From positions 1,245,921 through 1,277,920 of the forward strand of contig CAXXHZ010000003.1 of the NCBI GenBank assembly GCA_963666685.2: 32,000 nucleotides of DNA. Direction: 5' to 3'. A program made the position numbers and the translations under genes. Under the pieces are notes generated by a model. The model did no database searches and was not told where the DNA came from. It saw nothing but the letters and a program-made list of their open reading frames with translations. Shown here piece by piece: positions 957 to 24,002 of the stretch. How positions within the stretch are numbered: the stretch's first letter is position 1; each line of letters begins with the position of its first letter. The DNA comes from an uncultured Desulfobulbus sp. Its GTDB lineage: Bacteria; Desulfobacterota; Desulfobulbia; Desulfobulbales; Desulfobulbaceae.

Positions 957-967
957 CACCCTGCAAT

Positions 968-1444
968 ATGACCAACGCACTTGAAGTTCCGCATGCAGCA
1001 ACCGCCCAATCCCACGAAGAATCCTCTCTCCAAAAAACACGGGACTCCACTCTGGCACCCTTGACCCTTGCCGCTTTGGGGGTTGTTTACGGCGATATCG
1101 GAACCAGCCCGCTCTACGCTCTACGAGAATGTTTTCACGGCGACTACGGCATTGCCGTGACCAATCAAAATCTGGGTGACGGCATTTTTCGCATCATTGC
1201 GCATTACGATTTCATGGAAGAGCCGAATTTCACCTTATCCCGCGACAAGGGTATCGAACTGGAAATGAAGGATGCGAGCTTTTTTCTTGGTCGTGAAAAT
1301 CTGGGGATTCATGAGGAATCGAAAATGAGTCGGTGGCGATCAAACCTGTTTCTCTTTTTATCTAAAAATTCAATGGATGTAAGTTCTTACTTCGGCATCC
1401 CTTTAAACCAGGTTATTGAGGGCGGCATTCAACTTGATGTTTAG
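968..1444 (+). pseudogene. kup: Kup/HAK/KT potassium transporter remnant with a large in-frame internal deletion
   Basis: 159 codons from ATG 968. The N-terminal ~69 aa carry the Kup N-terminal signature [25 protein letters not shown]. They join directly, near nt 1175, to a Kup C-terminal cytoplasmic signature (YDFMEEPN...[11 protein letters not shown]...[16 protein letters not shown]...[16 protein letters not shown]). Full-length Kup is several hundred aa longer and the whole membrane core is missing. Confidence 0.7.
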
Positions 1445-6541: not shown

Positions 6542-6605
6542 CGTCTCAGGGTTTATGTGCCCCCCTTATACAGGTCAGGTCGATTTACCCCATGGGGCAC
6601 AAAAC

Positions 6606-6648
6606 AAAAACAGCCACTTAGCAAGCTGTCCGCTAAGTGGCTGTTTTT
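6606..6648. terminator. 17-bp-stem hairpin flanked by A5/T5 (bidirectional intrinsic-terminator shape)
   Basis: aaaaacagccacttagc (6606-6622) pairs perfectly with gctaagtggctgttttt (6632-6648). The stem core gccactta/taagtggc recurs at 19523-19551 and 19703-19730. Confidence 0.5.
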
Positions 6649-6653
6649 GTTAT

Positions 6654-6690
6654 TGGTGAACGCGGCGGCATTCAAACCCGCAATTACCCT
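6654..6690 (-). repeat. decayed copy of the 3' end of tRNA-Arg(CCG) (att-like direct repeat)
   Basis: ttattggtgaacgCggcggCattcAaacccgcAa aligns with ttattggtgaacgAggcggGattcGaacccgcGa at 19738-19771 with 4 mismatches. It is in the same orientation and is preceded by the same kind of hairpin. Confidence 0.6.
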
Positions 6691-6843: not shown

Positions 6844-6879
6844 GTGGCCTGTCCCCGATTGTTTCTGTCCCCGATTGTT
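6844..6879. repeat. repeat gtggcctgtccccgattgtt with an internal tandem copy of ctgtccccgattgtt
   Basis: 6844-6863 is identical to 7455-7474. The core ctgtccccgattgtt occurs at 6849-6863, 6865-6879 and 7460-7474. Confidence 0.85.
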
Positions 6880-6887
6880 TCCTAAGA

Positions 6888-7118
6888 TCATGGGCGATGG
6901 GCGGCGTATTCGTCTAATAGCCGCCGAATCATTTTTTGATACTGGGTGTTATGCTTTTTCGCTTCGTTCTTAAAAAATTCGACACTCGCCTTGCTCAACG
7001 CAATTGTGACTTTAACGGTTTCATCCTTCAAGGCAAGTTCTTCAGGTGAGGGAAGAAAATCAGAAACTCTCTTCACCTTGCCTATAGGCTCTTCAGTGTA
7101 TTTGATTTTCTCTTTCAT
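6888..7118 (-). CDS. brnA: BrnA-type antitoxin (CopG/RHH-like)
   Basis: 76 aa. Carries the pattern DFLPSPEEL...VKVTIALSKASVEFFKNEAKKHNTQYQKMIRRLLDEYA characteristic of BrnA. Overlaps the upstream BrnT gene by 26 nt. Confidence 0.8.
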   Translation of the reverse strand: MKEKIKYTEEPIGKVKRVSDFLPSPEELALKDETVKVTIALSKASVEFFKNEAKKHNTQYQKMIRRLLDEYAAHRP

Positions 7119-7383
7119 ATATCCTCTTTCCTTTCCGCCAGTACCCTGCCCCGATGATTCGGATTTTGCCTTTTTGATGCGTGAACCTCACGGTCATAAT
7201 TCCGCCGGAAACTCTTCCCAGGCAATAATATCGCTTTTCCTGGTCGCTGTGTTCGACATCCTCTAAAATGATACGTTTATGATCTAAGAACGCAAGTTGA
7301 GCTAAAGCAAAAGCAACTCCGTGCTTTTCTTGGTTCAGCTGATCCTTCTCCGAATCCCATTCGAAATCAGATTGCTTACCCAT
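7093..7383 (-). CDS. brnT: BrnT-type (DUF497) ribonuclease toxin
   Basis: 96 aa. FEWDSEKDQLNQEKHGVAF...RYYCLGRVSGGIMTVRFTHQKGKIRIIGAGYWRKGKRIYE matches the DUF497/BrnT layout. Confidence 0.8.
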   Translation of the reverse strand: MGKQSDFEWDSEKDQLNQEKHGVAFALAQLAFLDHKRIILEDVEHSDQEKRYYCLGRVSGGIMTVRFTHQKGKIRIIGAGYWRKGKRIYERENQIH

Positions 7384-7454: not shown

Positions 7455-7474
7455 GTGGCCTGTCCCCGATTGTT
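7455..7474. repeat. second copy of gtggcctgtccccgattgtt
   Basis: Exact 20-bp direct repeat of 6844-6863. The two copies bracket the brnTA cassette. Confidence 0.85.
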
Positions 7475-7566
7475 CTCCGAAATTTCCATCTAAGCCATGC
7501 GTTTTAAAAAGTTGGCACTTATCGCAGCTTACCCGGTCAATAGGCCAACAAAATAACCGAATTTAT

Positions 7567-7651: not shown

Positions 7652-7903
7652 ATGAAAACAACAGTAAGAAAGATTGGTAACAGCTTGGGGAACACTATAC
7701 CTGCTGCCTTTGCCAGAGATATAGGTATTGAGGAAGGAAGTGAAATCAACATCTCGATTAAGGACGGCAATATCATTATTGAGCCAATCACAGGGAAAAA
7801 GCGCTTTCCGTATTCAGAAAAGGATTTGCTTAAAGGGTTGACTGCTCAGACTGCTCATGCTGATGAACTGGCTAGCATATCACCTAAAGAATGGGGTGAA
7901 TAG
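7652..7903 (+). CDS. mazE: AbrB/SpoVT-fold antitoxin (MazE/PemI family)
   Basis: 83 aa. The N-terminal VRKIGNSLGNTIPAAFARDIGIEEGSEINISIKDGNIIIEP is the swapped-hairpin AbrB/MazE motif. Confidence 0.8.
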   Translation: MKTTVRKIGNSLGNTIPAAFARDIGIEEGSEINISIKDGNIIIEPITGKKRFPYSEKDLLKGLTAQTAHADELASISPKEWGE

Positions 7904-8262
7904 TGGTTCGGTACATTCCAGAACGGAACGACATAATTTGGCTAGATTTTGAACCAACAAAAGGCCGTGAGATTGGTAAATATCGGCCCGCCCTTGTTTT
8001 ATCAAGCAAAGCCTATAACCAGCAAACCGGTTTACTGATCTGTTGTCCTATAAGCACCAGTATTAGAGGTGGAATAACTGAGGTGCCAATCAATAACCTC
8101 GATAAGCCTTCAGTGGTCGCAGCTAGCCTCATTCAAACTTTGTCCTGGCGCGATCGAGCAGCCAAGAAGATAACAACGGCTGAATCTCAGGTTATGAATG
8201 ATGTGCTTTATCGCCTTATTCCGCTTATCGGCGGTGATAAGCTACTAAACATAGCAGACTGA
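7903..8262 (+). CDS. mazF: MazF/PemK-family endoribonuclease toxin
   Basis: 119 aa with a GTG start overlapping the mazE TAG. IPERNDIIWLDFEPTKGREIGKYRPALVLS...GLLICCPISTS matches the PemK/MazF core. Confidence 0.8.
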   Translation: MVRYIPERNDIIWLDFEPTKGREIGKYRPALVLSSKAYNQQTGLLICCPISTSIRGGITEVPINNLDKPSVVAASLIQTLSWRDRAAKKITTAESQVMNDVLYRLIPLIGGDKLLNIAD

Positions 8263-8711
8263 ATCAAAATACCTCAAAGTGATTCACGGAAAGCAATAAA
8301 AGCCGTCTGAAGCCCGGTTTAAATCCTCGATCCGCGTTTTTTTTCGGCTATTTTGATTCAAATCTTTTATGTTTTGATTCAACCAAAGGAAAGAGATGAA
8401 ATCAATAATTTCCCCCGAAATGTGGCTGTTCTCCCCCGGTGGTGAATGACTCTATTTGTCAGCTCAAGAGCGCCAGCGGTTTGGCGGGGGCGAATTCTCG
8501 CCGGTCGATAAATTAGAGGATACCGACCTTGCGAAAGGACTTTTTGATACCAACCGTCGCGACTACTAGCCCCCGATCTGCACGGCGCTGGTTATAACAT
8601 AATTAATATTGGTATCAAAACAGAAGTGGCGCCGGCAATCAACCTGGCCAAATGAAAACGGTATCATTAATCGAGATCCGGAGCAAACCTGGGATGAGTT
8701 TTTGATACCAA
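8260..8711. repeat. cluster of six TTTTGAT(T/A)C(C)AA motifs in non-coding DNA
   Basis: ttttgattcaa at 8351-8361 and 8372-8382, with an inverted copy at 8260-8269 that overlaps the mazF stop. tttttgataccaa at 8541-8553 and 8699-8711, with an inverted copy ttggtatcaaaa at 8609-8620. Confidence 0.6.
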
Positions 8712-9301
8712 GCAAAGCGGAAACCCAATCAGCAATCCTAGAAGAACAGGGCTTCCCTTCAATTGTGAGCATTGTGGAAAATCGATTAAAATTGAAGCAG
8801 CCTTGCTCTTTTCCCCTCCCAGTGGGGATATAGTGCAAAAGCACCATCTATGTGGCAACTGCTATCACTCTATTGTTCATAATTTCGTATCCTACGAAAA
8901 GTAACGATAGCAAATAGCTATGATGGATCGTCAGGAATCAACCAGAATTAAAATAGCGAGGTCAATAACTATTAAAGATGTTGACTTTCTAATTACGAAA
9001 TATTTTACAATGAATTGTAAGTCTACTGCCAGCACTGTGAATGATTAGCAGAAACTATTTAATTAAATTCGGTTCTCGATGAGAAATATGTCAGATGTCT
9101 TCTCTAACAAGTAATCACATATGGCTAAAGCAATTTTGCCGTCCTTTCACCTTTTTATTAATAAGTAAGTTGACAACCGAACATTGATTTTTTTTTTGCT
9201 CAACGATTCACGTTCAATTTGCATAAATATTGTTTAATCACCTAATCGATGATCGTCGAGATGTCAGATGATTAACGACCGCCTTAATAGGATAAAAAGA
9301 G

Positions 9302-10195
9302 ATGGCTCTGGCAATATCGACCTCGCAGCACCTCCGACCTTCGGCGATTGAACTGCTCGCCACGCTGCAACAACAAATTGACGCCTCAGAAAGAGGGCTT
9401 CAACGCTTTCTTCCAAAAAATCGAAAAAAGAAACGCTCTGCCACAACTTTGAAAGGTCTGCTTTCTGGGGACCAAAAATCGCATTCTTTCGATTCGATGC
9501 GCATGCTGGTGGCGATCGGCCTTTTACATTGGTCTGATGTACTCGGAAACAGCGCATCGCGCAGCTCTGCCATACCAAATGTCGCTGACTCACTAGCGTT
9601 CTCAGCATGCGCTCTCTGGCCACTTGTACTGATAAGGCATTTCCCAAAAAATTGGGAAGACGATTTGATAGAATTCTCTTCACCTCAAGTTGCTCAACTC
9701 CTGCTGGATGCACGTTTAGCTCTTCGGAAACACAATGAACATACTGTCTTTCCACTTTTTGCATCGGAGCTAACAAAACAAATCTATTCCAGAGGAATAT
9801 ATAATATTTTTGAGGATCTGAATGATGCAGAACGGGGTGCCCACGCCTTTGCTTCTGTCTTGAGGCTTTCTTCTAACAAGAAGATTCCGAAGCGACTTTC
9901 AACAAAAGATTTCTTTCTCTGGATTGGGTCGGCAGCCGTTACTGGCGCCATCGGAAACTTGTTTTATGACGAACTCAAGCAAGTCTGGTCAAATATCGAT
10001 ATTACACACGCGGTTAGTGGTGAAGTAAGCAGTGGATCTGGCGGTAGCTGCGACAACGCAGCATCGCTAAAGCATGATCCCGTTGCTGCAGGGCACGCAG
10101 TCAGCGCTCTTGCCCCCGCCCATTCCCATTCTGCACAGAGCACAACGGCCGATGATCTCGCCAACGGGCTTTCCAGCCTATTTGATCAAGATTAG
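9302..10195 (+). CDS. hypothetical protein (helical, disordered Ser/Ala/His-rich acidic C-tail)
   Basis: 297-aa ORF, the longest frame in this stretch. The overlapping minus-strand 170-aa ORF is R/S-rich and looks like a shadow frame. I recognise no motif. Confidence 0.5.
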   Translation: MALAISTSQHLRPSAIELLATLQQQIDASERGLQRFLPKNRKKKRSATTLKGLLSGDQKSHSFDSMRMLVAIGLLHWSDVLGNSASRSSAIPNVADSLAFSACALWPLVLIRHFPKNWEDDLIEFSSPQVAQLLLDARLALRKHNEHTVFPLFASELTKQIYSRGIYNIFEDLNDAERGAHAFASVLRLSSNKKIPKRLSTKDFFLWIGSAAVTGAIGNLFYDELKQVWSNIDITHAVSGEVSSGSGGSCDNAASLKHDPVAAGHAVSALAPAHSHSAQSTTADDLANGLSSLFDQD

Positions 10196-10232
10196 GCACG
10201 ATAGTGCCATCATCACTCGGAGGATTTCATCA

Positions 10233-10766
10233 ATGCAATGGATTTATCATTTATTGAATTATGCTTTGTGGGCAATCATTCTTGCTTTGCTGTGCATACC
10301 AATCAATATAGCTTTGATAGCGTTACGCTGGTGCTCTGCAAAATATATCTTCCATTTGTGGCGCGTTCGCAAAACACTAACAAAAGTTCCTGACGACTTG
10401 CTGCTACGGTCCGATGGAAAGCATGTTGTATTTGTCACGATAAGTCCAGATGGCACAGAGCAGTATCACCAATTCTATTCTGGTGTGTTAACCTGGAAAT
10501 CAGGACAACGACTTGTGAAGAAATTCCGTAGAACTGTAGACAAACAACTATTGTATCGATCGATTGCGTGGACTTTTATTGTGCTTCCATTATTTATTTC
10601 ATTTACATATTTTATTTTTAACAAACCTGAAGTTATTTCAACAAAGGATGTCTCCGAAATAAGGGGTTGTGTGTCTGGCATCCTGATATTAAGTATTCTT
10701 CAAGCTATGCCATTTACTTTGTTCATGTGGCCAGGACTGCAAGCACTTTTAGAAAATGTTGACTAA
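10233..10766 (+). CDS. hypothetical membrane protein (about 3 TM helices)
   Basis: Start chosen at ATG 10233 (MQWIYHLL), 8 nt after SD ggagga and 38 nt after the previous stop. TM segments: LWAIILALLCIPINIALIAL, IAWTFIVLPLFISFTYFIF and GILILSILQAMPFTLFMW. Confidence 0.55.
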   Translation: MQWIYHLLNYALWAIILALLCIPINIALIALRWCSAKYIFHLWRVRKTLTKVPDDLLLRSDGKHVVFVTISPDGTEQYHQFYSGVLTWKSGQRLVKKFRRTVDKQLLYRSIAWTFIVLPLFISFTYFIFNKPEVISTKDVSEIRGCVSGILILSILQAMPFTLFMWPGLQALLENVD

Positions 10767-10903
10767 TTTTTCTATCGGACCAGGTTGCAGGTTGTTTCAC
10801 CATTTCAATGTTACGTATAACTCTGAAAAGTGTTGACCAGCGGGATATTGACTTTTTCACGATATCTTCTCTGGACTACCCCTTCAGGTAGAAATGGGAT
10901 GAC

Positions 10904-11017
10904 ATTCGGTTTCTGGTTACCACTCAAAATTGCATGATATCCAGTTAGCCGGCACCCTAAAACGCCGATTTTCTGACATCTTGGCTTGAAATGGTGAGTG
11001 ATAGCCAGAAACCGGAT
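10904..11017. repeat. long imperfect inverted repeat / candidate structured RNA
   Basis: 10907-10925 (cggtttctggttaccactc) pairs with 10996-11014 (gagtgatagccagaaaccg): 17 Watson-Crick pairs, 1 G-U and 1 mismatch. The stem extends 3 bp outward and encloses 70 nt that contain smaller complementary segments. Confidence 0.6.
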
Positions 11018-11110
11018 AATAACTTGTTATGCCCCTGAAAACCATCTAGTCGACTGTAACCATTATGAAATATCATGAAACCTAATCGGTAACGTAAACG
11101 GAAACTCGTA

Positions 11111-11836
11111 ATGGCCCTAGAAGAATACGAAAAAACATTAGCGCGATTTCAACTGGAAAAACTGAATACTAAAGTTGACCTCCGGTTAAACAAGAACGGT
11201 AACATAGAAAAAACCCGCGATGGCGATTTGCAATTTGGCAATACCCAAATGAATGCAATGTTCAGGTTAGTTGAGAGATGGCGTCACAGTGAATCCACCA
11301 TAAATGAGTTATTTTTTCCAATGCTTCGCGCTGTAAAGCAACTTGAAAACTTGGAAAAGGAAAGAAAGCAAGGCACGAGCCCTTCGCTTAGCCAAGACCC
11401 AATAGCATATCACCGCGCGACAGAAGCTATTATTGAATATCAATCAGTCTCATCAGTGCTAGCAGGCTCAATTTTTGTTGTTGCGAATAATTTACTTCAA
11501 CGTTTTAGAATGGATCTGAATGCCTCTTGGGACGAGTGGAAATCAGCTATCCCAAAAATCAACAACTTTTCGATTGGCGAGATCTACTCGGCTGCTGCAG
11601 CAAATTTCAGACATTACGATGAATGGGCAATCTCTAAAAAGCCAGACCAAAAGCAACTTCCATCAATGACAGTACTTTGTGGGTTGCTTGACTACCCTGT
11701 TCAAACAAAACATGGATTCTCAACAATCCGAACAAATGTATGCGGAAGCATTCTAATGATGGTCAGCGAAGGGTCAATCGATGGTTTTCACCAGAAAACA
11801 TTTGACTATGTAAAGGCGCTGGCAAAATATCAGTAA
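11111..11836 (+). CDS. hypothetical protein (all-helical, function unknown)
   Basis: 241-aa ORF with no overlapping competitor. It contains R/H-rich segments (RLVERWRH, NFRHYDEW). I cannot assign these to a family. Confidence 0.6.
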   Translation: MALEEYEKTLARFQLEKLNTKVDLRLNKNGNIEKTRDGDLQFGNTQMNAMFRLVERWRHSESTINELFFPMLRAVKQLENLEKERKQGTSPSLSQDPIAYHRATEAIIEYQSVSSVLAGSIFVVANNLLQRFRMDLNASWDEWKSAIPKINNFSIGEIYSAAAANFRHYDEWAISKKPDQKQLPSMTVLCGLLDYPVQTKHGFSTIRTNVCGSILMMVSEGSIDGFHQKTFDYVKALAKYQ

Positions 11837-11985
11837 TGGGCTACGATCAGGCAGTTTTTGCATAAAGTTAACAGCATAAACCAGTCAATAAACCTGACCG
11901 GAAATGGCCACGTTCTTGAAAGGTGGGCAGCATCTCGGCCGGCAGGTTATTTCGCCGTTAGCAATTACTCATTATATAAATAAAT

Positions 11986-12873
11986 ATGGATAAAGTTAGC
12001 ACAGAACTTCTAAAAAGACTGCAATCAACTTCTAAACAATTGCTTACACATGCACTAGAGCACGCTCTCGATGAAACACAAAATGAAAGTAACGTACTGC
12101 AAACAATAATTAATATGCAGTCAGCTCTTGAATTATTGAGCAAATCATATGTTCTACGAAGAGATGGTTGGAAAGCAATTATCGACCCAAAATTTCATTC
12201 GCGTTCAGAATCTTTTCTTCTGTCAGCAATTGCGGATGGGTCAATTAAGACTATACCTTTTTGGAAAAGCCGAGAGATAGCATCTGAAACACTATACCTA
12301 AATGAAGAGGATAGGACTCTGCTAGATACATTTCAAAACAGAAGAAACCAGTTATTGCATTTGGGGTATATAAGTCCACCTAAAGAAATTCTCAATGAGG
12401 CAATATGGTTCTTGGTAAGAATTATTCATCAGCTAAAATGGAAAGAAATTTTACCAGTGAGCGATCAATATCTCACAAATAGTCTTAAGCTATTTATTGG
12501 CAGTGCACTCTATTATAAGTTAATGACAAACTCTTGTTATATCGATGAATCAATTGATCGAGCACACGATCTTTATCCATATGAAGTAACATATTGTTTA
12601 GAATGCGGAAAAGAATCTTTTGTAAAAACCGAAAAAGATAACTTGGTTTGTTTTGTTTGTGGATTTAAAGCAAACACAGATATTATCGGCTTCACCGATT
12701 GCCCATTGTGTGATACGGCTGAAACTGTAGCGTATGACAGGATGAATATTGGAATTAATGATAGAATTAATGGTAAATGCTGCAAATGTAGGGAATTCAT
12801 AGATGTATCAATGTGCAAGGAATGCGGTAATGTTTTTATTGCCGGAAAAATATGCGAATTTTGTGAATGCTAA
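11986..12873 (+). CDS. HEPN-motif protein with three C-terminal CxxC zinc ribbons (predicted RNase, uncharacterised)
   Basis: 295 aa. Helical N-terminal ~190 aa with FQNRRNQLLHLG, the Rx4H (RNxxxH) HEPN signature. The C-terminus has CLEC-x15-CFVC, CPLC-x24-CCKC and CKEC-x11-CEFCEC. AT-rich, with no SD before the ATG. Confidence 0.65.
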   Translation: MDKVSTELLKRLQSTSKQLLTHALEHALDETQNESNVLQTIINMQSALELLSKSYVLRRDGWKAIIDPKFHSRSESFLLSAIADGSIKTIPFWKSREIASETLYLNEEDRTLLDTFQNRRNQLLHLGYISPPKEILNEAIWFLVRIIHQLKWKEILPVSDQYLTNSLKLFIGSALYYKLMTNSCYIDESIDRAHDLYPYEVTYCLECGKESFVKTEKDNLVCFVCGFKANTDIIGFTDCPLCDTAETVAYDRMNIGINDRINGKCCKCREFIDVSMCKECGNVFIAGKICEFCEC

Positions 12874-13386
12874 CATAACGATCAAGCGGATGCTTACCTT
12901 GGGCGTACTAGTCAAGGTTTCTCCAGTCTACCGTGACTTTCGGCAGGGGTTGTGGGATGAAAATAAAGTTGGAAACCAAAAGACACTTATGTGTTTGATG
13001 TTCCGTGAATTGAGTTTCAGGGAATTCAATAAAGATGGTAACTTTGAGGTCGATTTTAGAACCAGTGCATGTAAAAACAAGCAGTTAACTCTATAGTTAC
13101 CGACTTTATTTGGAAGATCCCAACTATATTTTCAACCCACAAGAATGGCCTTCAAGAAACGATGAAAAGGCGTATGGCGGAATGAGTCATAAAATGAAAA
13201 AACAGGCGATACGCCAGAGACACCAAGGAGACAGAAGACTCGTCGTGATTGACGAGAGACAGAATGTCGCGACAAAATCAGGTCCCGCAATTATTGTGGG
13301 ATTTATGGTTCAAATGGTTAATAACCAAGGTCAATTCGCGCCTGCCAATGCAATTTCGCATGGCCTGCTCAAAATTTAACGCCCTA

Positions 13387-14256
13387 TTAATAAATATAAT
13401 CACCAATCCATGGATAATCTGCTTTAGACAACAAGACTGCACATTGCCTGGCTCTTGCAAATGGCTTGGAATCTTTGATTTCAGATTTAAGTCTGGCGAT
13501 TGCGGCATCAAATCTTTTGTAAAAAACACTACCTGTTGCGGCTCCACTTTTTTGCCATATTTTGAACATAGCATCGGCATCCTTAATATCTCGTGAAATA
13601 TCAATTACATAGGCTCTACGTTGTTGTGCTATTTCTTTTTTATCCAGATGGAACAACCATATGGTAACTTTTAAACGCCCCAATTCCTCATCACTCGGAG
13701 AATCTTTTTTCAAAGTTGGAGTGCCATCGGGACTGAACCACAGTAGTGCCATATCAGCTACGTTACATGGATCAAATGGCAACACAGCTTCTTCGATCTG
13801 ATCCCATTCCGTTCCTTCTGGTGCTCTTGCTCCTTCAACGGGGAAAAAATCCCACTTGCCTCCTTCCGTTTCCTCATCAACTCGTCGTTGATTCGAATGC
13901 ATGCAAGACAAACGAAAATTTTTCGGTTCAAACGCCAACCACCAGTAGCCTGGCGATATATCCCCCGTTTTTTCCAAGGTGCTATGGTCGATTTCGACAA
14001 CCCTTCCCTTGGGACGGAAGTGATCAACATTTGGATCTGCTCCATCCAAAGGCACTTCGGAGTACCAGCACTTGTTTCCGACAGCGCTTCTCAACCATTC
14101 CAGCAAAGCACCGTTGCCCCAAGTTTCATCTCTCTTTGATTTGATGAACGCAGCTCTTTCTTCGGGATTTTTCTCCAGCAGCTCTTTCGTTAACTCCCGA
14201 GCCTTGGCCTCCCATGCGGGGTCAAAAGGCATGTCATAGGGATTTATATATATCAT
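13387..14256 (-). CDS. ptuB: HNH endonuclease, Septu PtuB-like
   Basis: 289 aa. HNH core NKCWYSEVPL...VDHFRPKG...WWLAFEPKNFRLSCMHSNQRR, as in the HNH nucleases that pair with AAA_15/21 ATPases. ATGA overlap with the upstream ATPase gene. Confidence 0.7.
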   Translation of the reverse strand: MIYINPYDMPFDPAWEAKARELTKELLEKNPEERAAFIKSKRDETWGNGALLEWLRSAVGNKCWYSEVPLDGADPNVDHFRPKGRVVEIDHSTLEKTGDISPGYWWLAFEPKNFRLSCMHSNQRRVDEETEGGKWDFFPVEGARAPEGTEWDQIEEAVLPFDPCNVADMALLWFSPDGTPTLKKDSPSDEELGRLKVTIWLFHLDKKEIAQQRRAYVIDISRDIKDADAMFKIWQKSGAATGSVFYKRFDAAIARLKSEIKDSKPFARARQCAVLLSKADYPWIGDYIY

Positions 14257-15797
14257 CCCTGCCCCCCACTAACAGCATCGTACAACTTCGAAGAAAGTTT
14301 ATCTATCGCCTCAATCTTCCAGTCGGGGTTCTCGTCGGATGAGACAATCTCATTCACAACAATTTCATAGGCCATTCGGGCTATATTTTGATATGGATCG
14401 GGAGATATCTCGTCAGGGGTAAGACTTGGCACAAGCTTCCGAAGACGCTCAAGGTCTCTTTGTTGCTTCGGGTACTTTTCTTCAGAGGCTACTTCATATA
14501 TTCGTTTCAATACCCGTAGGCTAAAGGGATCAAGCTGGCTCTCCAAGCCAAACAAGGGGCTTGTCAAAACCCCGGCAACGCCCCTCCCACGTGGACTCTC
14601 TTCAGGCTCTTTTGCAACTATTTGCCCTTTTTGATTTCGGTGCAGCACGCGAATTTCATTTTTACGCAACCCGGAAACGAGCAAGGGGTCATGGGTCGCA
14701 AGGATAGTATGACTATTCTTATCAATCTCACCGACATTGCGTAAATGCTCCAGATAGTCAACACCCCAAGCCGGATTCAGATGGGTGTCCGGCTCATCAA
14801 GGAAATAGAGGGATTCAGCATTTCTGGTAAAGCGCATGAGGCCCAGGACCGTTAACAACTGCTGCTCGCCTTCGCTCAATTGCCGGGTGTGAATTGAGTC
14901 ATCACTACCTTTCACCCTTACCTTTACACGAAATGAACTTTCATCGATAAATTCGCTCAGCCGCATAGTGTCGAGTGCCTGGAAGAGTGCACCGGGGTCT
15001 TTTCCGTATTCCCTGGCCAAGGATTGAAGTGCTTGTAAATCAGGCAGATAAAGATAAAGAAATTCTTTTGTCAGGTTGCGACGAAAATCAACTTTAGTCC
15101 TCACTGTACTTGAAAACGGGACGAGACTATGCCGCTTGATCGCTTCCAGCAAGTCACGGACCGGCCCTTTGGCACCCCAGAAATCCTTTGCCTCAGCATT
15201 TTTTTTAGCCCAGGATGGTTTGTTTAAAACGATAAGCAACGAATCGAATGCTTCAATCCTGGGAAGTTTTTCGAGAAATTTGCAGACTTCTATATCGTCG
15301 GAATAATAGAAGGCTAAAAGGGAAAAAAGACCGTGGATCGGTCGCGCACAAATAAAGCTGCTTAGATCAAGTTTGTCGTTATCCTGGTTGTCTTCCAGTG
15401 TTTTATTCAGGGCAATTTTGTCGTGTTCTTCAAATAGTTCTTTAAAACGATCACTCGTTCCGGAATAATACCCGACAACATACCGAGGAGAATACTTCTC
15501 TCTAACTACTGTTGCAGTAACATTCTTACCGTTAACAGTTGCAGTAGGCGTTTTCCCTTCAATCCCATTGAGGCAGACATGATGTCCAGCAATCTTGTAG
15601 CTGAGTTCATAGGAGAACGGGGCAGATTTCTTGAGATTCAATTGGGAAAATATGCTGATGAGCGCCTCAGCCAAGTTCGTTTTAGCGGAACCATTACGGC
15701 CAATCAATACGGTAACATCGCAAGACTCGTTAAAGTCGATACAGAATCCTTCAAGGTTTTTCCACTTGCTGGTAATTCTTAGCTTATTGATTCGCAT
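14253..15797 (-). CDS. ptuA: ABC/SMC-like AAA_15/AAA_21 ATPase, Septu PtuA-like
   Basis: 514 aa. Walker A GRNGSAKTN, signature-like LSEGEQQ, Walker B LYFLDEPDTHL, H-loop ILATHDP. The start overlaps the hsdS 3' end by 14 nt. Confidence 0.7.
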   Translation of the reverse strand: MRINKLRITSKWKNLEGFCIDFNESCDVTVLIGRNGSAKTNLAEALISIFSQLNLKKSAPFSYELSYKIAGHHVCLNGIEGKTPTATVNGKNVTATVVREKYSPRYVVGYYSGTSDRFKELFEEHDKIALNKTLEDNQDNDKLDLSSFICARPIHGLFSLLAFYYSDDIEVCKFLEKLPRIEAFDSLLIVLNKPSWAKKNAEAKDFWGAKGPVRDLLEAIKRHSLVPFSSTVRTKVDFRRNLTKEFLYLYLPDLQALQSLAREYGKDPGALFQALDTMRLSEFIDESSFRVKVRVKGSDDSIHTRQLSEGEQQLLTVLGLMRFTRNAESLYFLDEPDTHLNPAWGVDYLEHLRNVGEIDKNSHTILATHDPLLVSGLRKNEIRVLHRNQKGQIVAKEPEESPRGRGVAGVLTSPLFGLESQLDPFSLRVLKRIYEVASEEKYPKQQRDLERLRKLVPSLTPDEISPDPYQNIARMAYEIVVNEIVSSDENPDWKIEAIDKLSSKLYDAVSGGQG

Positions 15798-17373
15798 CGG
15801 TTATCCTCCGAATCGGCTCGTTCGAGCCGACAGGAACATCAAGCAGCGTGTTTCTGCCTTCGCGTAACAGCTCGAAAAAACGATCGATGTCGCCAGATAA
15901 ACCAGATTCTATAACAAGTCGATCCGCCGTTGCATTTCCGCCGAGTTGATCAAGAGCAGAAACAAGTTCATTGAGTGTTGTGACCGTTTTTGTTTTCACA
16001 TGGCGCTCTTTTTTTATTTTATTTGTCCGGGGCTCTCGTTTTTGTTCAGGCTCGTTCGCTTTCCCTTCCTTGATACGTTTCAAAAGCTCACTTGCAGGTT
16101 CGTCGTTGGGGGCTTGGGGCACCAATTCACCACGAAAGGCCTTATTAAGAAGAGAGGGCGTTAGTTGGGCGACCTGTTCGAGACCTGCTGCGTAGCGGGC
16201 TTCAAGGCGGTTGGCAAAGGAAAATAAAATTTCGACACGACGGACTATTTCGCGCTGCTCAGACAATTTGGGGACTAAAGCAGGCGCAGATACTACGGTC
16301 TGTTGGTTTATCTTTGGCATATTGCCGGCTGTGCCTGTAGCATTTTCGCGAAAATAATTACGAACCGGCTCGCTTGATAAGATGTAATAGAGGTATTCCG
16401 TCAATACACGATGATTAGGCCGACATTTCATCATTAAATCCGGATAAATGAAACTTTCAACTGGACCATCATAGATCGCACTTACTCCAACGTATTCAAT
16501 AGAATTTGCTCGTTGAATTAATATGTCGCCAGGCATCAACCATAGATGTGAATTTTTCGGGATGTCCTCGTCAATATATTTAGAATGTGCCCGATTGAAT
16601 CGACCGCTTGTAGTTGCTGAGAGAGTCAGTGAGCGTGTATTAGTTTGGAACGGAACAGCTTTGGGCGAGTATCCGTTCCGAGGTTTTTCAGCCAGCAGGT
16701 CACCAATTCGAACTTTCTCCCATTCAAACTCTTCTCCTTGATCTTCTCGCCACTCCTCCGTCAGAGTACCCGAAGTGGCGGCAGCAAGCACCGACTGGCG
16801 GAAACGTTTGAGAATTTGTGGCACCCGGTCCAGCCGGTCGCGGCATGCATCAACCCGCGCCAGCAATGCGTCGAGTTTATCAGCAATCCGTTTTTGTTCA
16901 TTGAGGGGAGCAAGTACAAAAGGGAGTTTTGCTGCGACCGAGCCAGAGAGTTCCTTGAAGGTCGTGCCGGTCGCCATCATTTCCGCAATAGGCTTGATAT
17001 GGCGCAAATAATAATAAACGAAGCGGCTGTCTGTCGATTCAGTCAGGACAAAACTTTTGAATCCCTGACTGGTAGTGACTTCAGTTGACGCGATTGCAAC
17101 GTACCCTACCGGTGCACGACTGGAAAACAAGACGCTTCCGGCAGGCATTTTCATCGCAGAGCAAGCCGAATAGCCTTTCTCGGAAAGATTCCGAGCCCCT
17201 TTGCTAATGTATGCATCTTTGTAACCGCTCAAATCCGCTGGAGTAATCCAAGGAATCCCACCCTGAGTCGTAAAATTCGTTGGGTCCTTTGATGGAGGAG
17301 TCCCGCCACCAACAACTTTTGCGACATCGCAGATCTCGCATTCAACCCAGTTTTCGGGCAACTCTGAGCTCAC
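15784..17373 (-). CDS. hsdS: type I restriction-modification specificity subunit HsdS with a ~90-aa C-terminal extension
   Basis: 529 aa. Two TRD halves, each followed by a conserved helical spacer (LNEQKRIADKLDALLARVDACRDRL... and LSEQREIVRRVEILFSFANRLEARY...LLNKAFRGELVPQ). GTG start overlaps the hsdM TGA. Confidence 0.85.
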   Translation of the reverse strand: MSSELPENWVECEICDVAKVVGGGTPPSKDPTNFTTQGGIPWITPADLSGYKDAYISKGARNLSEKGYSACSAMKMPAGSVLFSSRAPVGYVAIASTEVTTSQGFKSFVLTESTDSRFVYYYLRHIKPIAEMMATGTTFKELSGSVAAKLPFVLAPLNEQKRIADKLDALLARVDACRDRLDRVPQILKRFRQSVLAAATSGTLTEEWREDQGEEFEWEKVRIGDLLAEKPRNGYSPKAVPFQTNTRSLTLSATTSGRFNRAHSKYIDEDIPKNSHLWLMPGDILIQRANSIEYVGVSAIYDGPVESFIYPDLMMKCRPNHRVLTEYLYYILSSEPVRNYFRENATGTAGNMPKINQQTVVSAPALVPKLSEQREIVRRVEILFSFANRLEARYAAGLEQVAQLTPSLLNKAFRGELVPQAPNDEPASELLKRIKEGKANEPEQKREPRTNKIKKERHVKTKTVTTLNELVSALDQLGGNATADRLVIESGLSGDIDRFFELLREGRNTLLDVPVGSNEPIRRITDANQ

Positions 17374-18767
17374 CCCTCCACCTCCACACCCAGTTCCGCC
17401 ATAATCCCCCTCAACTCTGCCATGGCCGCTTCCAACGCCCCCATCGCTTCCTGCGCCAGGACCACCGGCTCGGAAAGTTCGTCGATTATTCCAAACCAGG
17501 AAATGTCGAGGCTGTCATCTTTGATGTCTTTAATCCATTCACGCGTAAAGCAGCGAAAGCGGCCTTCCTCCCCCAGATCCTTGCGCTTGAACTTGCCGTG
17601 GGGGGCATCGCCGAAACTGGCAATGAACTCCTTAAAATGCTCTTTTCCCAGCGGTGTCCGCTTACCGAAACTGGGCATATTGGCCCGCATGTCGTAAACC
17701 CAAACCTCTTTCGTATTCTCCTTGTCTTTCTCTCCCCGCGAGAAAAAGAGAACATTCGTCTTCACACCTTGGGAGTAGAATATACCGGTGGGAAGACGCA
17801 AGATCGTGTGGAGGTTGCACTTGTTCATCAGATCCTGACGAATATCTTTCCCCACCCCGCTCTCGAACAGAACATTATCGGGAAGTACCACTGCTGCCCG
17901 GCCACCCGCCTTAAGGCCAAGATAGATATGCTGTAAAAATAAGAACTGTTTATTGGCCGATGTGAACGGAATATCATCTCGCCCCTTTCTCGCGCCGCCA
18001 GCTTTTGCCCCAAATGGCGGATTAGCAAGTATCAAATCAGCAGGTTGCAATTCTCGGCAATCCTCGGAAAGGGCGTCACCCAGTATGATATTGGCGTTCA
18101 TTCGATGCAGGAATGTGTTCATCAGGCTGATACGGTGCGTTCCTTTTTCAATCTCCATACCTTGGTAAACAGGTGGATTGGCCAGATATTGAGATTTACT
18201 GTTTTCAGCCCGAATAAAGTGGTCGGCGGAAATTAGGAAGCCACAACTCCCTGATGCCGGATCTTGAATCACCTCTCCCAACTGCGGTTTCATCACCTGA
18301 ACAATACAATCAACCAACGCCCGAGGGGTAAAATATTGACCTGCGCCTGAACGCGCATCTTCAGAATTTTTTGCCAGCAAACCTTCGTATATCTGCCCAA
18401 AACCATCGTCTGATACCGAGTGCCAGTCGATTTTGTTTATCCCATCGATGACAGCCTTAAGGTTTTCCGAGTGATTAAAGACTGTTGTAGGAAATGCGTA
18501 TATCTCCCGTACCGTTTCCGTTGCACCCGCACCTCCAAGATGGGTCAACATCTCCTGATAGTAAAACAACAGGTTGTCGCCTTTGAAACTGACTAAATCT
18601 TTCCAGCGGTGTCTAGCAGGAAGGAGGTCTTCCGTCCCTGTCTCCTCCGCAATTTTCAGGAACAGAAGGTAGGTTAGCTCCGAAATATACTCATGGTAAC
18701 TGATGCCGTCACCACGCAGAATATTGCAGAGACTCCAGAGTCTTTGGACTATATTTTCGCTTTTCAT
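17370..18767 (-). CDS. hsdM: type I restriction-modification N6-adenine DNA methyltransferase HsdM
   Basis: 465 aa. HsdM N-terminal helix LWSLCNILRGDGISYHEYISELTYLLFLK, SAM motif DPASGSCGFL, catalytic NPPFG. Confidence 0.9.
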   Translation of the reverse strand: MKSENIVQRLWSLCNILRGDGISYHEYISELTYLLFLKIAEETGTEDLLPARHRWKDLVSFKGDNLLFYYQEMLTHLGGAGATETVREIYAFPTTVFNHSENLKAVIDGINKIDWHSVSDDGFGQIYEGLLAKNSEDARSGAGQYFTPRALVDCIVQVMKPQLGEVIQDPASGSCGFLISADHFIRAENSKSQYLANPPVYQGMEIEKGTHRISLMNTFLHRMNANIILGDALSEDCRELQPADLILANPPFGAKAGGARKGRDDIPFTSANKQFLFLQHIYLGLKAGGRAAVVLPDNVLFESGVGKDIRQDLMNKCNLHTILRLPTGIFYSQGVKTNVLFFSRGEKDKENTKEVWVYDMRANMPSFGKRTPLGKEHFKEFIASFGDAPHGKFKRKDLGEEGRFRCFTREWIKDIKDDSLDISWFGIIDELSEPVVLAQEAMGALEAAMAELRGIMAELGVEVEG

Positions 18768-19152: not shown

Positions 19153-19527
19153 TCACCCTTCGACAAGTCTCTTGAGCTTCTCGGCATATTCATTGGCCCG
19201 ACTCCTTGAATTCAGGGCCGCTTTTTTGTACCCGCTCCCCAGAGAGTCAAACAATACCATCTCCCGCTCCTCATGCTGCATGAGGGCGGTATAGGCAGCA
19301 ATCTTGACGGAGCGCTCCTGTTCGTCCCGCTGGGCAAGTAATGCTTGCGTGTTGGTCTTCAGTTCCTCCCCCTGCTGCCGGTAACCTAAAACCAGCCAGA
19401 GAAACGCTACCGGTGCGCAATATCCGGCCAGGATATCGCTCCACTCATTCAGCCTAAGCTGGGATACATCGGAAACCCAGTAGGCAGCTTGACTATTAAC
19501 ATTGGGGCACAAAACGGAAAAAGCCAC
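19153..19527 (-). CDS. hypothetical protein, possibly 5'-truncated
   Basis: 124-aa ORF with one TM-like helix (ILAGYCAPVAFLWLVLGY) and a coiled-coil-like tail. Its only start is a GTG lying inside the hairpin stem at 19523-19533. Confidence 0.4.
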   Translation of the reverse strand: MAFSVLCPNVNSQAAYWVSDVSQLRLNEWSDILAGYCAPVAFLWLVLGYRQQGEELKTNTQALLAQRDEQERSVKIAAYTALMQHEEREMVLFDSLGSGYKKAALNSRSRANEYAEKLKRLVEG

Positions 19528-19560
19528 TCAGTCAAAAATAGACTAAGTGGCTAATATTGT

Positions 19561-19610
19561 TGGTGCGCAAGGCAGGATTCGAACCCGCAGCCCACGGCTT
19601 AGAAGGCCGA
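19561..19610 (-). pseudogene. 3' fragment of a tRNA-Arg(UCU) (anticodon arm to CCA), 5' part absent
   Basis: The reverse complement reads TCGGC-CTTCTAA-GCCGT-GGGCT-GCGGG-TTCGAAT-CCTGC-CTTGCGC-A-CCA. No D-arm or 5' acceptor strand (GCGCAAG) follows. It is preceded by the hairpin gccactcagtc/gactaagtggc at 19523-19551. Confidence 0.6.
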
Positions 19611-19692
19611 ACAGATTGCGTGTTCCTTTGGTTTATTCTGCTGCGACTCGTTTAAGGGCTTTATGAGATAGGGGTAGCAATAGGGTAGCAAA

Positions 19693-19730
19693 GCTAAAAC
19701 AAGCCACTTAACCAAAACAAGTTAAGTGGC
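19693..19730 (-). terminator. intrinsic terminator of tRNA-Arg
   Basis: 10-bp perfect stem gccacttaac/gttaagtggc (19703-19712 / 19721-19730), starting 9 nt after the tRNA 3' end. It is followed on the minus strand by TTGTTTT. Confidence 0.55.
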
Positions 19731-19739
19731 TAATATTAT

Positions 19740-19816
19740 TGGTGAACGAGGCGGGATTCGAACCCGCGACCTTTGGCTTCGGAGGCCAACACTCTATCCA
19801 GCTGAGCTACCCGTCC
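19740..19816 (-). tRNA. tRNA-Arg (anticodon CCG), CCA encoded
   Basis: Folded by hand, 77 nt: GGACGGG-TA-GCTC-AGCTGGATA-GAGT-G-TTGGC-CTCCGAA-GCCAA-AGGTC-GCGGG-TTCGAAT-CCCGC-CTCGTTC-A-CCA. All four stems pair, with two G-U pairs in the acceptor stem. Confidence 0.9.
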
Positions 19817-22838: not shown

Positions 22839-24002
22839 TCAGTAATCGGTATGAAGGATGACGGCGAAACAATTGAATACGGCCCAGGCCGAATCCCCTA
22901 TATTGAGATGAAGCGCCTTACTCCCGCTGGTTGAAAACGAAGAGCATAATTCTGTGCCGTCGCTGATTTGCACGACATACTCAGAACTCACTTTCCCCTT
23001 GTTAATGCGAACCACCTTGCCTTTGAACCGATTTTCCGCACTGCAGGGAGGTTCCGCATCACCCGGTTGCAGGATGACCCAGGGCGCTTTAATCTCAGCG
23101 GTGACCAACCGGCCCGTATTCAGTCCCAACCGCTCGAGACTGTTGTTGGTGATCATTGCCGTTACCGTATATCCGGCGAGATTGATGAGGCTGACCAGTG
23201 ATTGCAAGTCTCCGCGCTGGATATCGACGATCTTCCCGAAAAAAGCATTTCTGGCACTGGTTTTTCGGGTTGATTCCCGTTCCATAAAAATTTTGGTCAC
23301 CCGCTGGAGTTCCTCCTCGGAAAAGGAAACATAGGCGGTTGTCAGGTTGGGAGTGGAATGCCCCAGAAGCTTCTGCACCGCAGGCAAAGGCAAATTGCTC
23401 TGCACCAATTCCACAGCCCTGGCTCGCCGGATCATTTCCGGGCCGCCGAGACGCTTGACAAATCCGCAGGCCTCGGCACGTTCATAGAATTTTCGTCGAA
23501 CAAAGGCCGGATCAACGGCAAACAGCTTTGTCAGCGATCCTCTGAAAACAGGGTCGGCTAAAGCAACTTGAATCTCTTTGCTCAGGTGTTCGGCAATACT
23601 AATCTCCCGATCGAATCCTTGTTCTTCACCGTCGAGATTCTGGATACAGACCACCCGGCGCTCGGTATCGATATCGGCAAATGGATCGAGCGCAAGAATT
23701 TCGCTGAGTTTGGCCCCGGTATAACGAATGAGGAGAAAAACAATCAGAATGCGACGGCGGGAGAGCCGGACATCGGTGCGTGACGAGGCCTCAACCCATT
23801 GTCGAAACGATTGTTCCAGCAGGCTGAGCTGTATCGTATCAAGGCAGGGGTCGTCACTGGGGCTGGAGACAATGCCCCCGAGACTGAATCCCGCACTAAG
23901 TTGTGGTATTATTTTTTTTCTCTCTGATTTTTTTGGACGCATGGCGCTTGCTCTTCGTGCATGGGGAGATTTTCCGATACTCTTGTCAGCCTCCTCCCGC
24001 AT
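22839..24002 (-). CDS. TunR-family regulator: XerC/D-like domain fused to tandem Mop/TOBE oxyanion-binding domains
   Basis: 387 aa. Tyrosine-recombinase-like region (YTGAKLSEILAL...LLGHSTPNLTTAYV) with the first catalytic Arg replaced by Lys and the HxxR box lost. The C-terminus has two Mop/TOBE repeats (SARNAFFGKIVDIQRGDLQSLVSL... and AENRFKGKVVRINKGKVSSEYVV...). Confidence 0.7.
   Translation of the reverse strand: MREEADKSIGKSPHARRASAMRPKKSERKKIIPQLSAGFSLGGIVSSPSDDPCLDTIQLSLLEQSFRQWVEASSRTDVRLSRRRILIVFLLIRYTGAKLSEILALDPFADIDTERRVVCIQNLDGEEQGFDREISIAEHLSKEIQVALADPVFRGSLTKLFAVDPAFVRRKFYERAEACGFVKRLGGPEMIRRARAVELVQSNLPLPAVQKLLGHSTPNLTTAYVSFSEEELQRVTKIFMERESTRKTSARNAFFGKIVDIQRGDLQSLVSLINLAGYTVTAMITNNSLERLGLNTGRLVTAEIKAPWVILQPGDAEPPCSAENRFKGKVVRINKGKVSSEYVVQISDGTELCSSFSTSGSKALHLNIGDSAWAVFNCFAVILHTDY

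Follow-up and report, generated by a model that had tools for sequence, protein, structure and literature searches.

A four-gene operon of an uncultured Desulfobulbus joins type I methylase genes to a Septu-type PtuA/PtuB pair and may form a defence unit that does not require HsdR

The locus described here lies within a stretch of 32,000 nucleotides (nt) from an uncultured Desulfobulbus sp. (GenBank assembly GCA_963666685.2, contig CAXXHZ010000003.1, positions 1,245,921 to 1,277,920 of the forward strand), the whole of which is referred to below as the window. It contains an operon of four genes, which encode the methyltransferase (HsdM) and specificity (HsdS) subunits of a type I restriction-modification (R-M) system together with an ATPase and an HNH nuclease of the kind that make up the Septu defence system (PtuA and PtuB). 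The genes and junctions of this operon are as follows.

17370-18767, minus strand: hsdM, 465 amino acids (aa), type I N6-adenine DNA methyltransferase subunit
15784-17373, minus strand: hsdS, 529 aa, GTG start, type I specificity subunit
14253-15797, minus strand: ptuA, 514 aa, Septu-type ABC ATPase
13387-14256, minus strand: ptuB, 289 aa, Septu-type HNH nuclease partner
15787-16068, minus strand: C-terminal tail of HsdS (last 94 aa), with a disordered Lys/Arg-rich linker and, after it, a three-helix domain
17370-17373, minus strand: hsdM/hsdS junction, GTGA common to the hsdM TGA and the hsdS GTG
15784-15797, minus strand: hsdS/ptuA junction, 14-nt overlap, with the ptuA start and its GGAGG inside the region coding for the tail
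14253-14256, minus strand: ptuA/ptuB junction, ATGA overlap

The open reading frames (ORFs) were called mechanically, and both these calls and the reading of the junctions agree with the preliminary description of this DNA, in which the four genes had been placed head-to-tail on the minus strand with an overlap at every junction. At each of the three junctions read, a GGAGG-like or G-rich stretch is located inside the upstream gene, shortly 5' of the downstream start. The convergence of the neighbouring genes upon ptuB, which had likewise been described, is borne out by the plus-strand ORFs at 11986-13379. In a scan of the operon for promoters and terminators the number of sites did not exceed that in shuffled sequence, and the promoter-like site that scored best overlaps the start of hsdM.

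The identities that had been assigned to the four proteins are supported by profile matches in Pfam and/or PADLOC. HsdM matches Pfam N6_Mtase (2.9e-69) and PADLOC MTase_I (7e-188), and the solved structure nearest to it is that of EcoKI M (1.6e-126). The motifs for S-adenosylmethionine binding and catalysis that are expected of a type I methylase are present and intact in this protein (motif I, DPASGSCGF, at residue 169; catalytic NPPFG at residue 249). HsdS matches Pfam Methylase_S (3e-35, in two stretches) and PADLOC Specificity_I (1e-108); it comprises the usual two target-recognition domains and two conserved regions and, in addition to these, a non-canonical C-terminal tail.

The ATPase encoded by the third gene matches Pfam AAA_21, AAA_15 and SMC_N, and the PADLOC PtuA model PDLC00293 aligns with it across the full model length (2.2e-150). 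It contains the sequence motifs of a PtuA ATPase, viz. a Walker A motif (GRNGSAKT at 33), a signature motif (LSEGE at 307), a Walker B motif (YFLDEPD at 331) and ATHD at 367. When its AlphaFold model (predicted local distance difference test, pLDDT, 77) was compared with the PDB using Foldseek, the top 46 matches were all PtuA chains from the E. coli Septu and retron I-A systems (best E 6e-13), and the SMC heads and AriA ranked below them. The similarity to the solved PtuA proteins in terms of sequence is confined to the Walker B region (E ~1e-5), and the NCBIfam PtuA model NF041760 gives only 56 bits against a cut-off of 500. Because of this marginal similarity and low score, the window protein is best placed in a distant PtuA subfamily. 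A sub-threshold match was also observed to TIGR04435, the "restriction system-associated AAA family ATPase" (111 bits, cut-off 300). The product of the fourth gene, which begins immediately 3' of ptuA as in Septu, matches PADLOC PtuB (8e-57) and carries the motifs VDHFRPKG (residue 77) and NFRLSCMHSN (residue 113), which fit the HNH-type pattern DH...N...H; it has no match to any Pfam model, including that for HNH, and no sequence match in the PDB.

The preliminary description had also stated that no ORF of the window has the hallmarks of HsdR, the motor-nuclease subunit of type I R-M systems, and this statement holds in two separate searches. No match to ResIII, HSDR_N or EcoEI_R_C was obtained with Pfam for the ORFs of at least 150 aa outside the operon, the other large ORFs of the window encoding only housekeeping and regulatory proteins. 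When all six-frame segments of at least 25 aa from the window were searched with a profile built from 33 HsdR proteins, the best E value was 0.86, and hence no remnant of this gene was found. Within these 32 kb, hsdMS is thus not accompanied by hsdR.

To examine the distribution of this gene arrangement, a scan with a PtuA alignment was carried out using one genome per species. It identified at least 538 relatives, and the best 80 of these (36-86% identical) were annotated using phmmer and an iterated HsdR profile; many of the loci, which are denoted below by L numbers, come from metagenome-assembled genomes. The genes hsdS, ptuA and ptuB, with a neighbouring hsdM, were present in all 80 of these species-representative loci found via PtuA, and hsdS was located immediately 5' of ptuA, with ptuB immediately 3' of it, in every locus where the upstream sequence could be read (80 of 86). 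The hsdM gene is located either upstream (order M-S-A-B, the letters standing for hsdM, hsdS, ptuA and ptuB) or directly downstream (S-A-B-M). In 75 of 79 loci, the distance from hsdS to ptuA fell in the range of -14 to +30 nt, with an overlap in 50 of them, and overlapping junctions were also observed between ptuA and ptuB (69 of 82) and between hsdM and hsdS (45 of 50). In total, the arrangement with overlapping junctions, whose conservation the preliminary description had made a matter for a genome survey, was found again in more than 90 independent loci, and those without hsdR are among them. The plasmid-borne and E. coli chromosomal loci that were inspected also conform to it. On long contigs, the PtuA most similar to that of the window is found in L001 (89% identical), where the same four overlapping genes lie among housekeeping genes with no hsdR within 10 kb, and a PtuA relative at 67% (L005/L006) lies in an operon of the order hsdR-hsdM-hsdS-ptuA-ptuB. 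Some related loci contain split genes and are decayed (L092, L093, L029, L018). Clustering of the neighbouring genes revealed no further recurrent partner beside the cassette, only sporadic Fic, YhcG/DUF1016, RadC and HNH genes.

The C-terminal tail of HsdS was present in all of the PtuA-linked HsdS proteins, which are long (~500-690 aa). In these proteins, the C-terminal conserved region "...DEPAS.LL.RIK" is followed by a Lys/Arg-rich linker and then by a helical domain of ~60 aa. This tail belongs to no Pfam family; AlphaFold predicts for that of the window a disordered linker and a three-helix bundle (helices at tail residues 32-75, pLDDT 85-89), for which Foldseek found nothing in the PDB with E below 2. 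The HsdS of EcoBI, a member of the same type IA family, has no such tail and ends with "...KIKAERAASGGKKASRKKF", whereas the HsdS of L063, a locus whose HsdM is 95% identical to that of EcoBI and whose hsdR is 79% identical in DNA, continues for ~75 residues beyond this end into the tail and is then followed by ptuAB.

We also searched for loci starting from the tail. A large-database search with the 94-aa tail alone returned only two near-identical fragments; when conserved region 2 was added to the tail, the matches were for the most part short HsdS fragments, together with three on long contigs that were used for context. In all three, an ATPase gene directly follows the tailed hsdS. A metagenome scan, for which a 5-sequence tail alignment was used because a 16-sequence alignment was too variable, identified seven loci, and in six of these ptuA and ptuB follow the tailed hsdS. 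In the seventh (L100, 4564-8451), which comprises hsdR, a tailed hsdS, ptuB and hsdM, ptuA has been deleted and ptuB starts inside the end of hsdS. Thus, PtuAB genes were attached in 10 of 10 loci found via the tail. In a comparison of pairwise distances across 67 loci, those of the tail followed PtuA (Spearman 0.52; 0.46 among pairs with very different HsdM) and not HsdM (0.15 and -0.02, respectively), and the distances of PtuA were correlated with those of PtuB (0.58) and not with those of target-recognition domain 1 (0.06). An example is provided by L047 and L049, whose HsdM proteins are only 53% identical although their PtuA proteins are 88% and their tails 72% identical. As the tail distances follow PtuA rather than HsdM, the tail, ptuA and ptuB appear to travel as a single module and to have been joined to type I systems of different families, and we propose the tail as a putative adaptor to PtuA.

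The exchange of parts may extend to PtuB itself. Two types of this protein, of ~287 aa and ~269 aa, occur in the gammaproteobacterial loci (e.g. L047/L049/L034/L063 versus L039/L056/L052/L082); the two types share only 27-35% identity, against 72-88% for the adjoining PtuA proteins, and in these loci PtuB appears to have been exchanged independently of PtuA.

Further evidence of a different kind comes from natural fusions. An exhaustive comparison of the window PtuA with 1.84 billion cluster representatives yielded 258 representatives at E <=1e-30, and several of these have a length of 1,099-1,179 aa, with a PtuA part that starts at residue ~550-620. Pfam identifies Methylase_S in their N-terminal part and AAA_15/AAA_21 in their C-terminal part, and a single reading frame runs through conserved region 2, the basic linker, a tail-type helical domain, a second linker and the PtuA N-terminus. 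At least six full-length HsdS::PtuA fusions were found, and as their PtuA parts are 48-81% identical to one another, they represent an established lineage and not an assembly artefact. The fusion loci are three-gene operons, [HsdS::PtuA]-PtuB-HsdM, in which the NPPF, Walker and HNH motifs are intact. One of them (L105) lies on a 2.1-Mb contig and is free of hsdR for 9 kb in both directions, and another (L104) has a 74-aa HsdR-like remnant shortly upstream. Such fusions are classical Rosetta-stone evidence, by which HsdS and PtuA are expected to act in one complex that has no need of HsdR. The strict synteny in all related loci, the presence of the tail only together with PtuAB and the natural fusions thus support the view that the four genes form one functional unit rather than stacked neighbours, so far as gene order and protein sequence can speak to function. 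The plainer account offered in the preliminary description, that these genes are merely stacked in a defence island, is ruled against by the same three observations.

The absence of hsdR in the relatives was judged within 5-10 kb of the cassette. Among the loci for which a judgement could be made, a full hsdR was found in 32, fragments only in three and no hsdR at all in 30, even though at least 5 kb was available on either side of the cassette in these 30; hsdR fragments are present in L008, L059, L092, L093 and L104. Where hsdR is present it lies upstream, the orders being R-M-S-A-B or R-S-A-B-M (R, hsdR). In the PtuA tree, which like our other trees was constructed by neighbour-joining on BLOSUM distances and carries no support values, the presence of hsdR is patchy and differs between the members of several sister pairs (L039/L040, L056/L052, L047/L049 and L032/L044), which indicates repeated loss of this gene. 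In the HsdM tree, the window groups with L001, L004, L037, L047, L051, L056, L060, L074, L078, L082 and two E. coli islands, and none of the members of this clade, which spans Geobacterales-like metagenome bins, Alpha- and Gammaproteobacteria and Nitrospinota, has hsdR; its actinobacterial sister clade also has none, and in the clade containing EcoBI hsdR is mostly present. Cassettes without hsdR were found on two different integrase islands of E. coli (at yicC/dinD and mutS/ygbA), whose HsdM proteins are only 48-49% identical to that of EcoBI, and on a conjugative plasmid of Vibrio vulnificus. A type IA hsdR of the kind found in L063, which is of the EcoKI/EcoBI type, was matched in 938 of 5,426 E. 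coli genomes. In view of these distributions, HsdR is probably dispensable to the unit and has been lost repeatedly. The earlier suggestion that the ATPase/HNH pair occupies the place of HsdR is in line with the lineage of the window, where the whole HsdM clade and self-contained mobile islands are devoid of hsdR, but it does not extend to the relatives at large, as about half of the related loci keep a full upstream hsdR. Because of these latter loci, PtuAB is better regarded as an add-on to an HsdM/HsdS core, placed as PrrC is in EcoprrI.

The large genes neighbouring the cassettes without hsdR (carB, glmS twice, gyrB, dnaE, gcvT, glycosidases and conjugation genes) were considered as sources of a hidden HsdR, and the unclassified ones among them were rejected as housekeeping or unrelated proteins, except for helicases in two loci. 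These are a ResIII plus Helicase_C_2 protein of 841 aa (L057, 13985-16510, minus strand) and a DEAD plus Helicase_C protein of 1048 aa (L068, 15903-19049, minus strand), each encoded on the strand opposite to a nearby S-A-B-M cassette without hsdR; both are atypical superfamily 2 helicases that lack HSDR_N and EcoEI_R_C.

Several additional genes were observed in or beside the cassette in individual branches. A gammaproteobacterial branch (L040, L049, L052, L054, L062, L039 and L087; ~5.4-6.7 kb) has a Fic/DOC gene with the domains Fic_N, Fic and SoFic-like_C between hsdR and hsdM, and this gene still precedes hsdM in L039 and on the Vibrio plasmid, which have lost hsdR. A YhcG/DUF1016 gene of the PD-(D/E)xK type is located between hsdM and hsdS in L004 and L024. 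Directly after ptuB in L049 (12566-15942) are genes for a small HNH protein of 243 aa and for an 876-aa ResIII plus KAP-NTPase protein, which may constitute another appended defence pair; the small HNH gene also follows ptuB in L039 and L040 and is located between hsdR and hsdM in L065. In two unrelated genomes (L015, 6351-8204; L082, 4702-6540), a cassette without hsdR lies immediately downstream of glmS, the vicinity of which is the classical attachment region of Tn7-type elements, and this hints at a preferred insertion site of the cassette near glmS.

Evidence concerning the methylase itself comes from the comparison of the window with L001, both of which lack hsdR. The two operons are 93% identical in HsdM, 89% in PtuA and 82% in PtuB, and the conserved regions and tail of HsdS are 80-93% identical, but both target-recognition domains of HsdS are only 10-30% identical. 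Another locus, L007, shares the first target-recognition domain with the window (80-96%) and not the second. Divergent target-recognition domains in otherwise near-identical operons are the result of domain shuffling, which is typical of active type I systems. All 29 HsdM proteins encoded at loci without hsdR contain NPPF, and 26 of the 29 contain motif I by a strict pattern. The possibility that these proteins have lost a domain was considered and rejected, as they show only a deletion of ~7 aa after motif I and small substitutions. Methylase catalysis and specificity thus appear to be under selection without HsdR.

Among the known systems, the stand-alone type I Septu pair PtuA/PtuB, reportedly described by Doron et al. 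in 2018 and represented by structure 8EEA, resembles the last two genes of the operon in consisting of an ABC ATPase and an HNH protein encoded by overlapping genes, and the full-length PADLOC matches are to its two proteins. It differs in being autonomous, whereas the lineage of the window was never found alone but always with a tailed hsdS and hsdM, and its sequence similarity to the solved PtuA is very low. The "restriction-linked ORFs" RloA/RloB of Campylobacter type I loci are also an ATPase-containing pair adjoining type I genes, but RloB is Toprim-like rather than HNH and these loci are not known to lack hsdR; we know of no adaptor tail or fusion reported for RloA/RloB or for TIGR04435 loci. 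As the name of the TIGR04435 model indicates, a loose association of such an ATPase with restriction systems is already known at the level of annotation. Classical type I R-M systems (EcoKI/EcoBI, type IA) share with the window the HsdM (45% identical to that of EcoBI) and the HsdS, both of which are true type I subunits, the domain shuffling and the translational coupling of hsdM and hsdS; unlike them, the window has no HsdR motor-nuclease and possesses an additional C-terminal domain in HsdS as well as two extra coupled genes.

A parallel in terms of gene position is provided by PrrC of EcoprrI and by RloC, which are also ABC-ATPase-based nuclease effectors encoded directly after hsdS, and PrrC is physically silenced by the R-M complex (PMC12707154). 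PrrC, however, is one polypeptide that includes an anticodon-nuclease domain of its own, hsdR is retained in its loci, and no tail or fusion of HsdS has been described for it; the effector of the window consists of two subunits (PtuA and the HNH protein PtuB), hsdR is often absent in its lineage, and no PrrC model was among the 25 best PADLOC matches, at the top of which are PtuA models. In retrons of type I-A (Ec78/Eco7, Ec83), PtuAB is subordinate to a co-encoded sensor module that binds it, PtuAB of retron-Eco7 being a toxin module under a bound complex of reverse transcriptase and multicopy single-stranded DNA (RT-msDNA) (PMC12640716), and the retron form is classified in PADLOC as Septu type II, a subtype defined by a conserved extra gene (PMC8565338). 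The partner in the window is instead HsdM plus HsdS; no reverse-transcriptase domain was found in the window ORFs by Pfam, and Rfam detected only tRNA and no other non-coding RNA. A methylation-based defence system of eight genes, MADS (mad1-8), has mad6-8 as its defining genes and includes a type I-like M (mad2), S (mad5) and an ABC ATPase (mad3) with no canonical HsdR (bioRxiv 10.1101/2023.03.30.534895). Deletion of mad5 reportedly succeeded only when mad2 or mad3 was removed as well. Our proteins give secondary matches to the mad2, mad3 and mad5 models, but the scores are far below the NCBIfam cut-offs and below those of the type I and PtuA models, and mad6, mad7 and mad8 were not found by PADLOC among the four operon proteins and nine other ORFs of the surrounding island. 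Payne et al. report Septu embedded in Hma and PrrC as a system typical of type I loci, and the lineage of PtuAB with type I genes is not singled out there. In the full-text literature on PtuA or Septu together with HsdS, HsdM or a specificity subunit, we found no account of the unit, although an earlier mention in comparative genomics is possible. Hence, the parts, a Septu effector and a type I methylase sensor, are known, and what looks new is their joining as a hybrid defence system.

In the reading that we prefer, and to which we would give about an even chance, the four genes make up a defence unit complete in itself, a type I methyltransferase core is linked to an effector of the Septu type, HsdR is not required and the trigger is an unmethylated target. 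The HsdM2S1 methylase would most likely be the sensor and PtuAB the effector. HsdM2-HsdS1 would assemble as in EcoKI and methylate the target sites of the host, and a PtuA oligomer with PtuB would be held by HsdMS via the flexible tail of HsdS. PtuAB would remain silent while HsdMS meets only methylated or hemimethylated self DNA, and would be released or activated when HsdMS is on an unmethylated target site of incoming DNA. This trigger is preferred because catalysis and specificity seem to be selected without HsdR and because a precedent exists in MADS. The HNH nuclease PtuB would then cut nucleic acid, either by nicking DNA, as in the E. coli Septu, or by acting on tRNA, as in retron-Eco7, both substrates being possible (PMC11555353, PMC13376987). 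The outcome would be a methylation-marked system of self/non-self discrimination with PtuAB as an alternative effector, and in loci that bear hsdR, PtuAB would be a second effector on the same sensor. The more general claim, that these loci constitute a distinct and widespread class of R-M systems in which the methyltransferase core reads the methylation of a bipartite target and directs PtuAB in place of HsdR, i.e. motorless restriction with exchangeable specificity, is advanced with somewhat less confidence, and we would sooner doubt it than assert it.

Several considerations weigh against this preferred reading. About half of the relatives keep hsdR, so restriction in these loci does not need PtuAB, for which a role as back-up or guard is the better fit there. 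Both add-ons of this kind that have been studied experimentally, PrrC-EcoprrI and retron I-A, operate through disruption of the sensor and not through sensing of unmethylated DNA. The methylase motifs could have been conserved for an epigenetic function with no bearing on defence, and the physical linkage of adjacent DNA could be part of the source of the co-variation of tail and PtuA. It is also possible that the cognate hsdR of the window is located elsewhere in the source genome, outside the 32 kb; in Sau1 of Staphylococcus aureus, hsdR lies apart from its hsdMS pairs.

The strongest competitor, which we consider possible but clearly less probable than the preferred reading, is a guard or toxin-antitoxin arrangement resembling PrrC, in which HsdMS would silence PtuAB via the tail and phage anti-restriction proteins of the Ocr, ArdA or Stp kind, which attack the methylase core or act on it as DNA mimics, would dislodge PtuAB and cause abortive infection; in loci without hsdR, HsdMS would have been kept as bait and antitoxin. 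The genes ptuAB directly follow hsdS, which is the position of prrC, and in S-A-B-M loci they are truly embedded. PrrC is silenced by EcoprrI and activated by Stp of phage T4 (PMC12707154; bioRxiv 10.1101/2024.01.29.577857), and the RT-msDNA of retron-Eco7 is an antitoxin of PtuAB that is triggered by a phage nuclease (PMC12640716). The repeated loss of hsdR, with M-S-A-B always being kept, resembles addiction to an antitoxin, and a second layer is sensible in the half or so of the loci that are complete R-M systems. A pure bait, however, needs no methylase catalysis, yet NPPF is retained in every HsdM from loci without hsdR, and turnover of the target-recognition domains has no obvious value for sensing DNA mimics that are themselves sequence-independent, though neither of these points is decisive. 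Triggering by an unmethylated target and triggering by disruption of HsdMS are both plausible and do not exclude each other.

The remaining explanations appear considerably less likely. That an ordinary type I R-M system and an independent Septu merely travel together, with hsdR elsewhere or recently lost, is improbable: defence genes do cluster and are often embedded in type I loci (bioRxiv 10.1101/2024.01.29.577857), hsdR fragments persist in the five loci named above, and the type IA hsdR present in many E. coli genomes might act in trans, but the strict adjacency across phyla, the restriction of the tail to PtuAB loci and the in-frame fusions would be left unexplained, an entire HsdM clade is without hsdR, mobile islands and a plasmid carry only M-S-A-B, and the HsdM proteins of the E. 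coli islands share only 48-49% identity with that of EcoBI. Still less credence is given to a selfish module, in which PtuAB would be a post-segregational killer placed on hsdS, with the tail as its antidote-binding site, and would stabilise an island bearing an epigenetic or orphan methylase without any phage defence. The unit does occur on mobile islands beside other toxin-antitoxin pairs (BrnTA and MazEF in the window) and PtuAB freed in retron systems is toxic (PMC12640716, PMC13376987); against this, homologues of PtuAB have been validated experimentally as defence effectors, diversifying target-recognition domains are a hallmark of restriction specificity, and nothing points to such a module directly. 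The least credible account of all is that the operon is a non-functional remnant of a decayed R-M-S-A-B operon, for although the loci with split genes are visibly decayed, none of the four window genes is disrupted and no catalytic motif is missing, the closest relatives have the same architecture and are 82-93% identical in HsdM, PtuA and PtuB, and the state without hsdR is conserved across phyla.

The trigger of Septu is poorly understood, and hsdMS pairs that lack HsdR tend to be written off as orphans or remnants. If the coupling of the methylase to PtuAB exists as proposed, a sizeable share of these "orphan" pairs would be working immune systems, and PtuAB would be a general plug-in effector for different sensors, viz. 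RT-msDNA in retrons and a methyltransferase here. The HsdS tail and the HsdS::PtuA fusions would then provide a concrete interface through which a complex that reads sequence and methylation switches on an ABC-ATPase nuclease. Defence-annotation tools would be expected to label such loci "Septu" together with an incomplete type I R-M system, so a new subtype would be needed, and the E. coli islands would offer native and tractable versions of the system. Native E. coli cassettes lie at 4694458-4700134 of NZ_CP091700 (strain KFu019) and at 4143070-4148746 of NZ_CP067245 (strain OW1E2).

In the window, the operon is part of an att-bounded island of low G+C content, ~12.9 kb in length, the boundaries of which are as follows.

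6593-6681, strand not given: distal island boundary, direct-repeat copies of the 3' half of tRNA-Arg and adjacent sequence (repeat families D2 and D4)
19503-19816, minus strand: tRNA-proximal island boundary, with repeats at 19503-19531 and 19557-19588 and a degenerate tRNA-like copy at 19535-19608
19740-19816, minus strand: intact tRNA-Arg(CCG) at the tRNA-proximal boundary

The direct repeats pair 6650-6681 with 19736-19767 (91% identity) and 6593-6621 with 19503-19531, and the degenerate tRNA-like copy at 19535-19608 is 78% identical to 19714-19787, which suggests either two successive integrations at one tRNA or a decayed tandem island. Besides the operon, the island contains BrnT/BrnA, MazE/MazF and four uncharacterised ORFs; it has no integrase and no hsdR, and PADLOC gave no match for nine of its other ORFs. 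The two type II toxin-antitoxin pairs are located at 6888-7383 (minus strand; BrnT 1.8e-20, with BrnA at 8e-5, below the Pfam cut-off) and at 7652-8262 (plus strand; MazE 5.5e-11 with PemK/MazF 4.9e-24). A 16-nt unit, CTGTCCCCGATTGTTT, is present as a tandem duplicate at 6849-6880 and again at 7460-7475, on either side of brnTA, and may be an operator. The stretch of ~1 kb at 8262-9300 contains no ORF of at least 100 aa and no Rfam match. It is followed by the four consecutive ORFs at 9302-12873 (plus strand, 230-297 aa), which converge on ptuB and matched nothing in Pfam or PADLOC. They could represent a defence or mobile-element cassette that is as yet uncharacterised; the last of them (11986-12873) has a Cys-rich end with several CxxC pairs and a zinc-ribbon-like look.

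Two other ORFs of the window were noted. A 211-aa ORF beside minC (809-1444, plus strand) combines the first 38 positions of the K_trans membrane domain with the K_trans C-terminal domain and looks like an internally deleted pseudogene of a kup-type potassium transporter. Outside the island, a 387-aa protein encoded at 22839-24002 (minus strand) shows an unusual pairing of a weak Phage_integrase match (1.2e-9) with two TOBE domains (3.3e-21).

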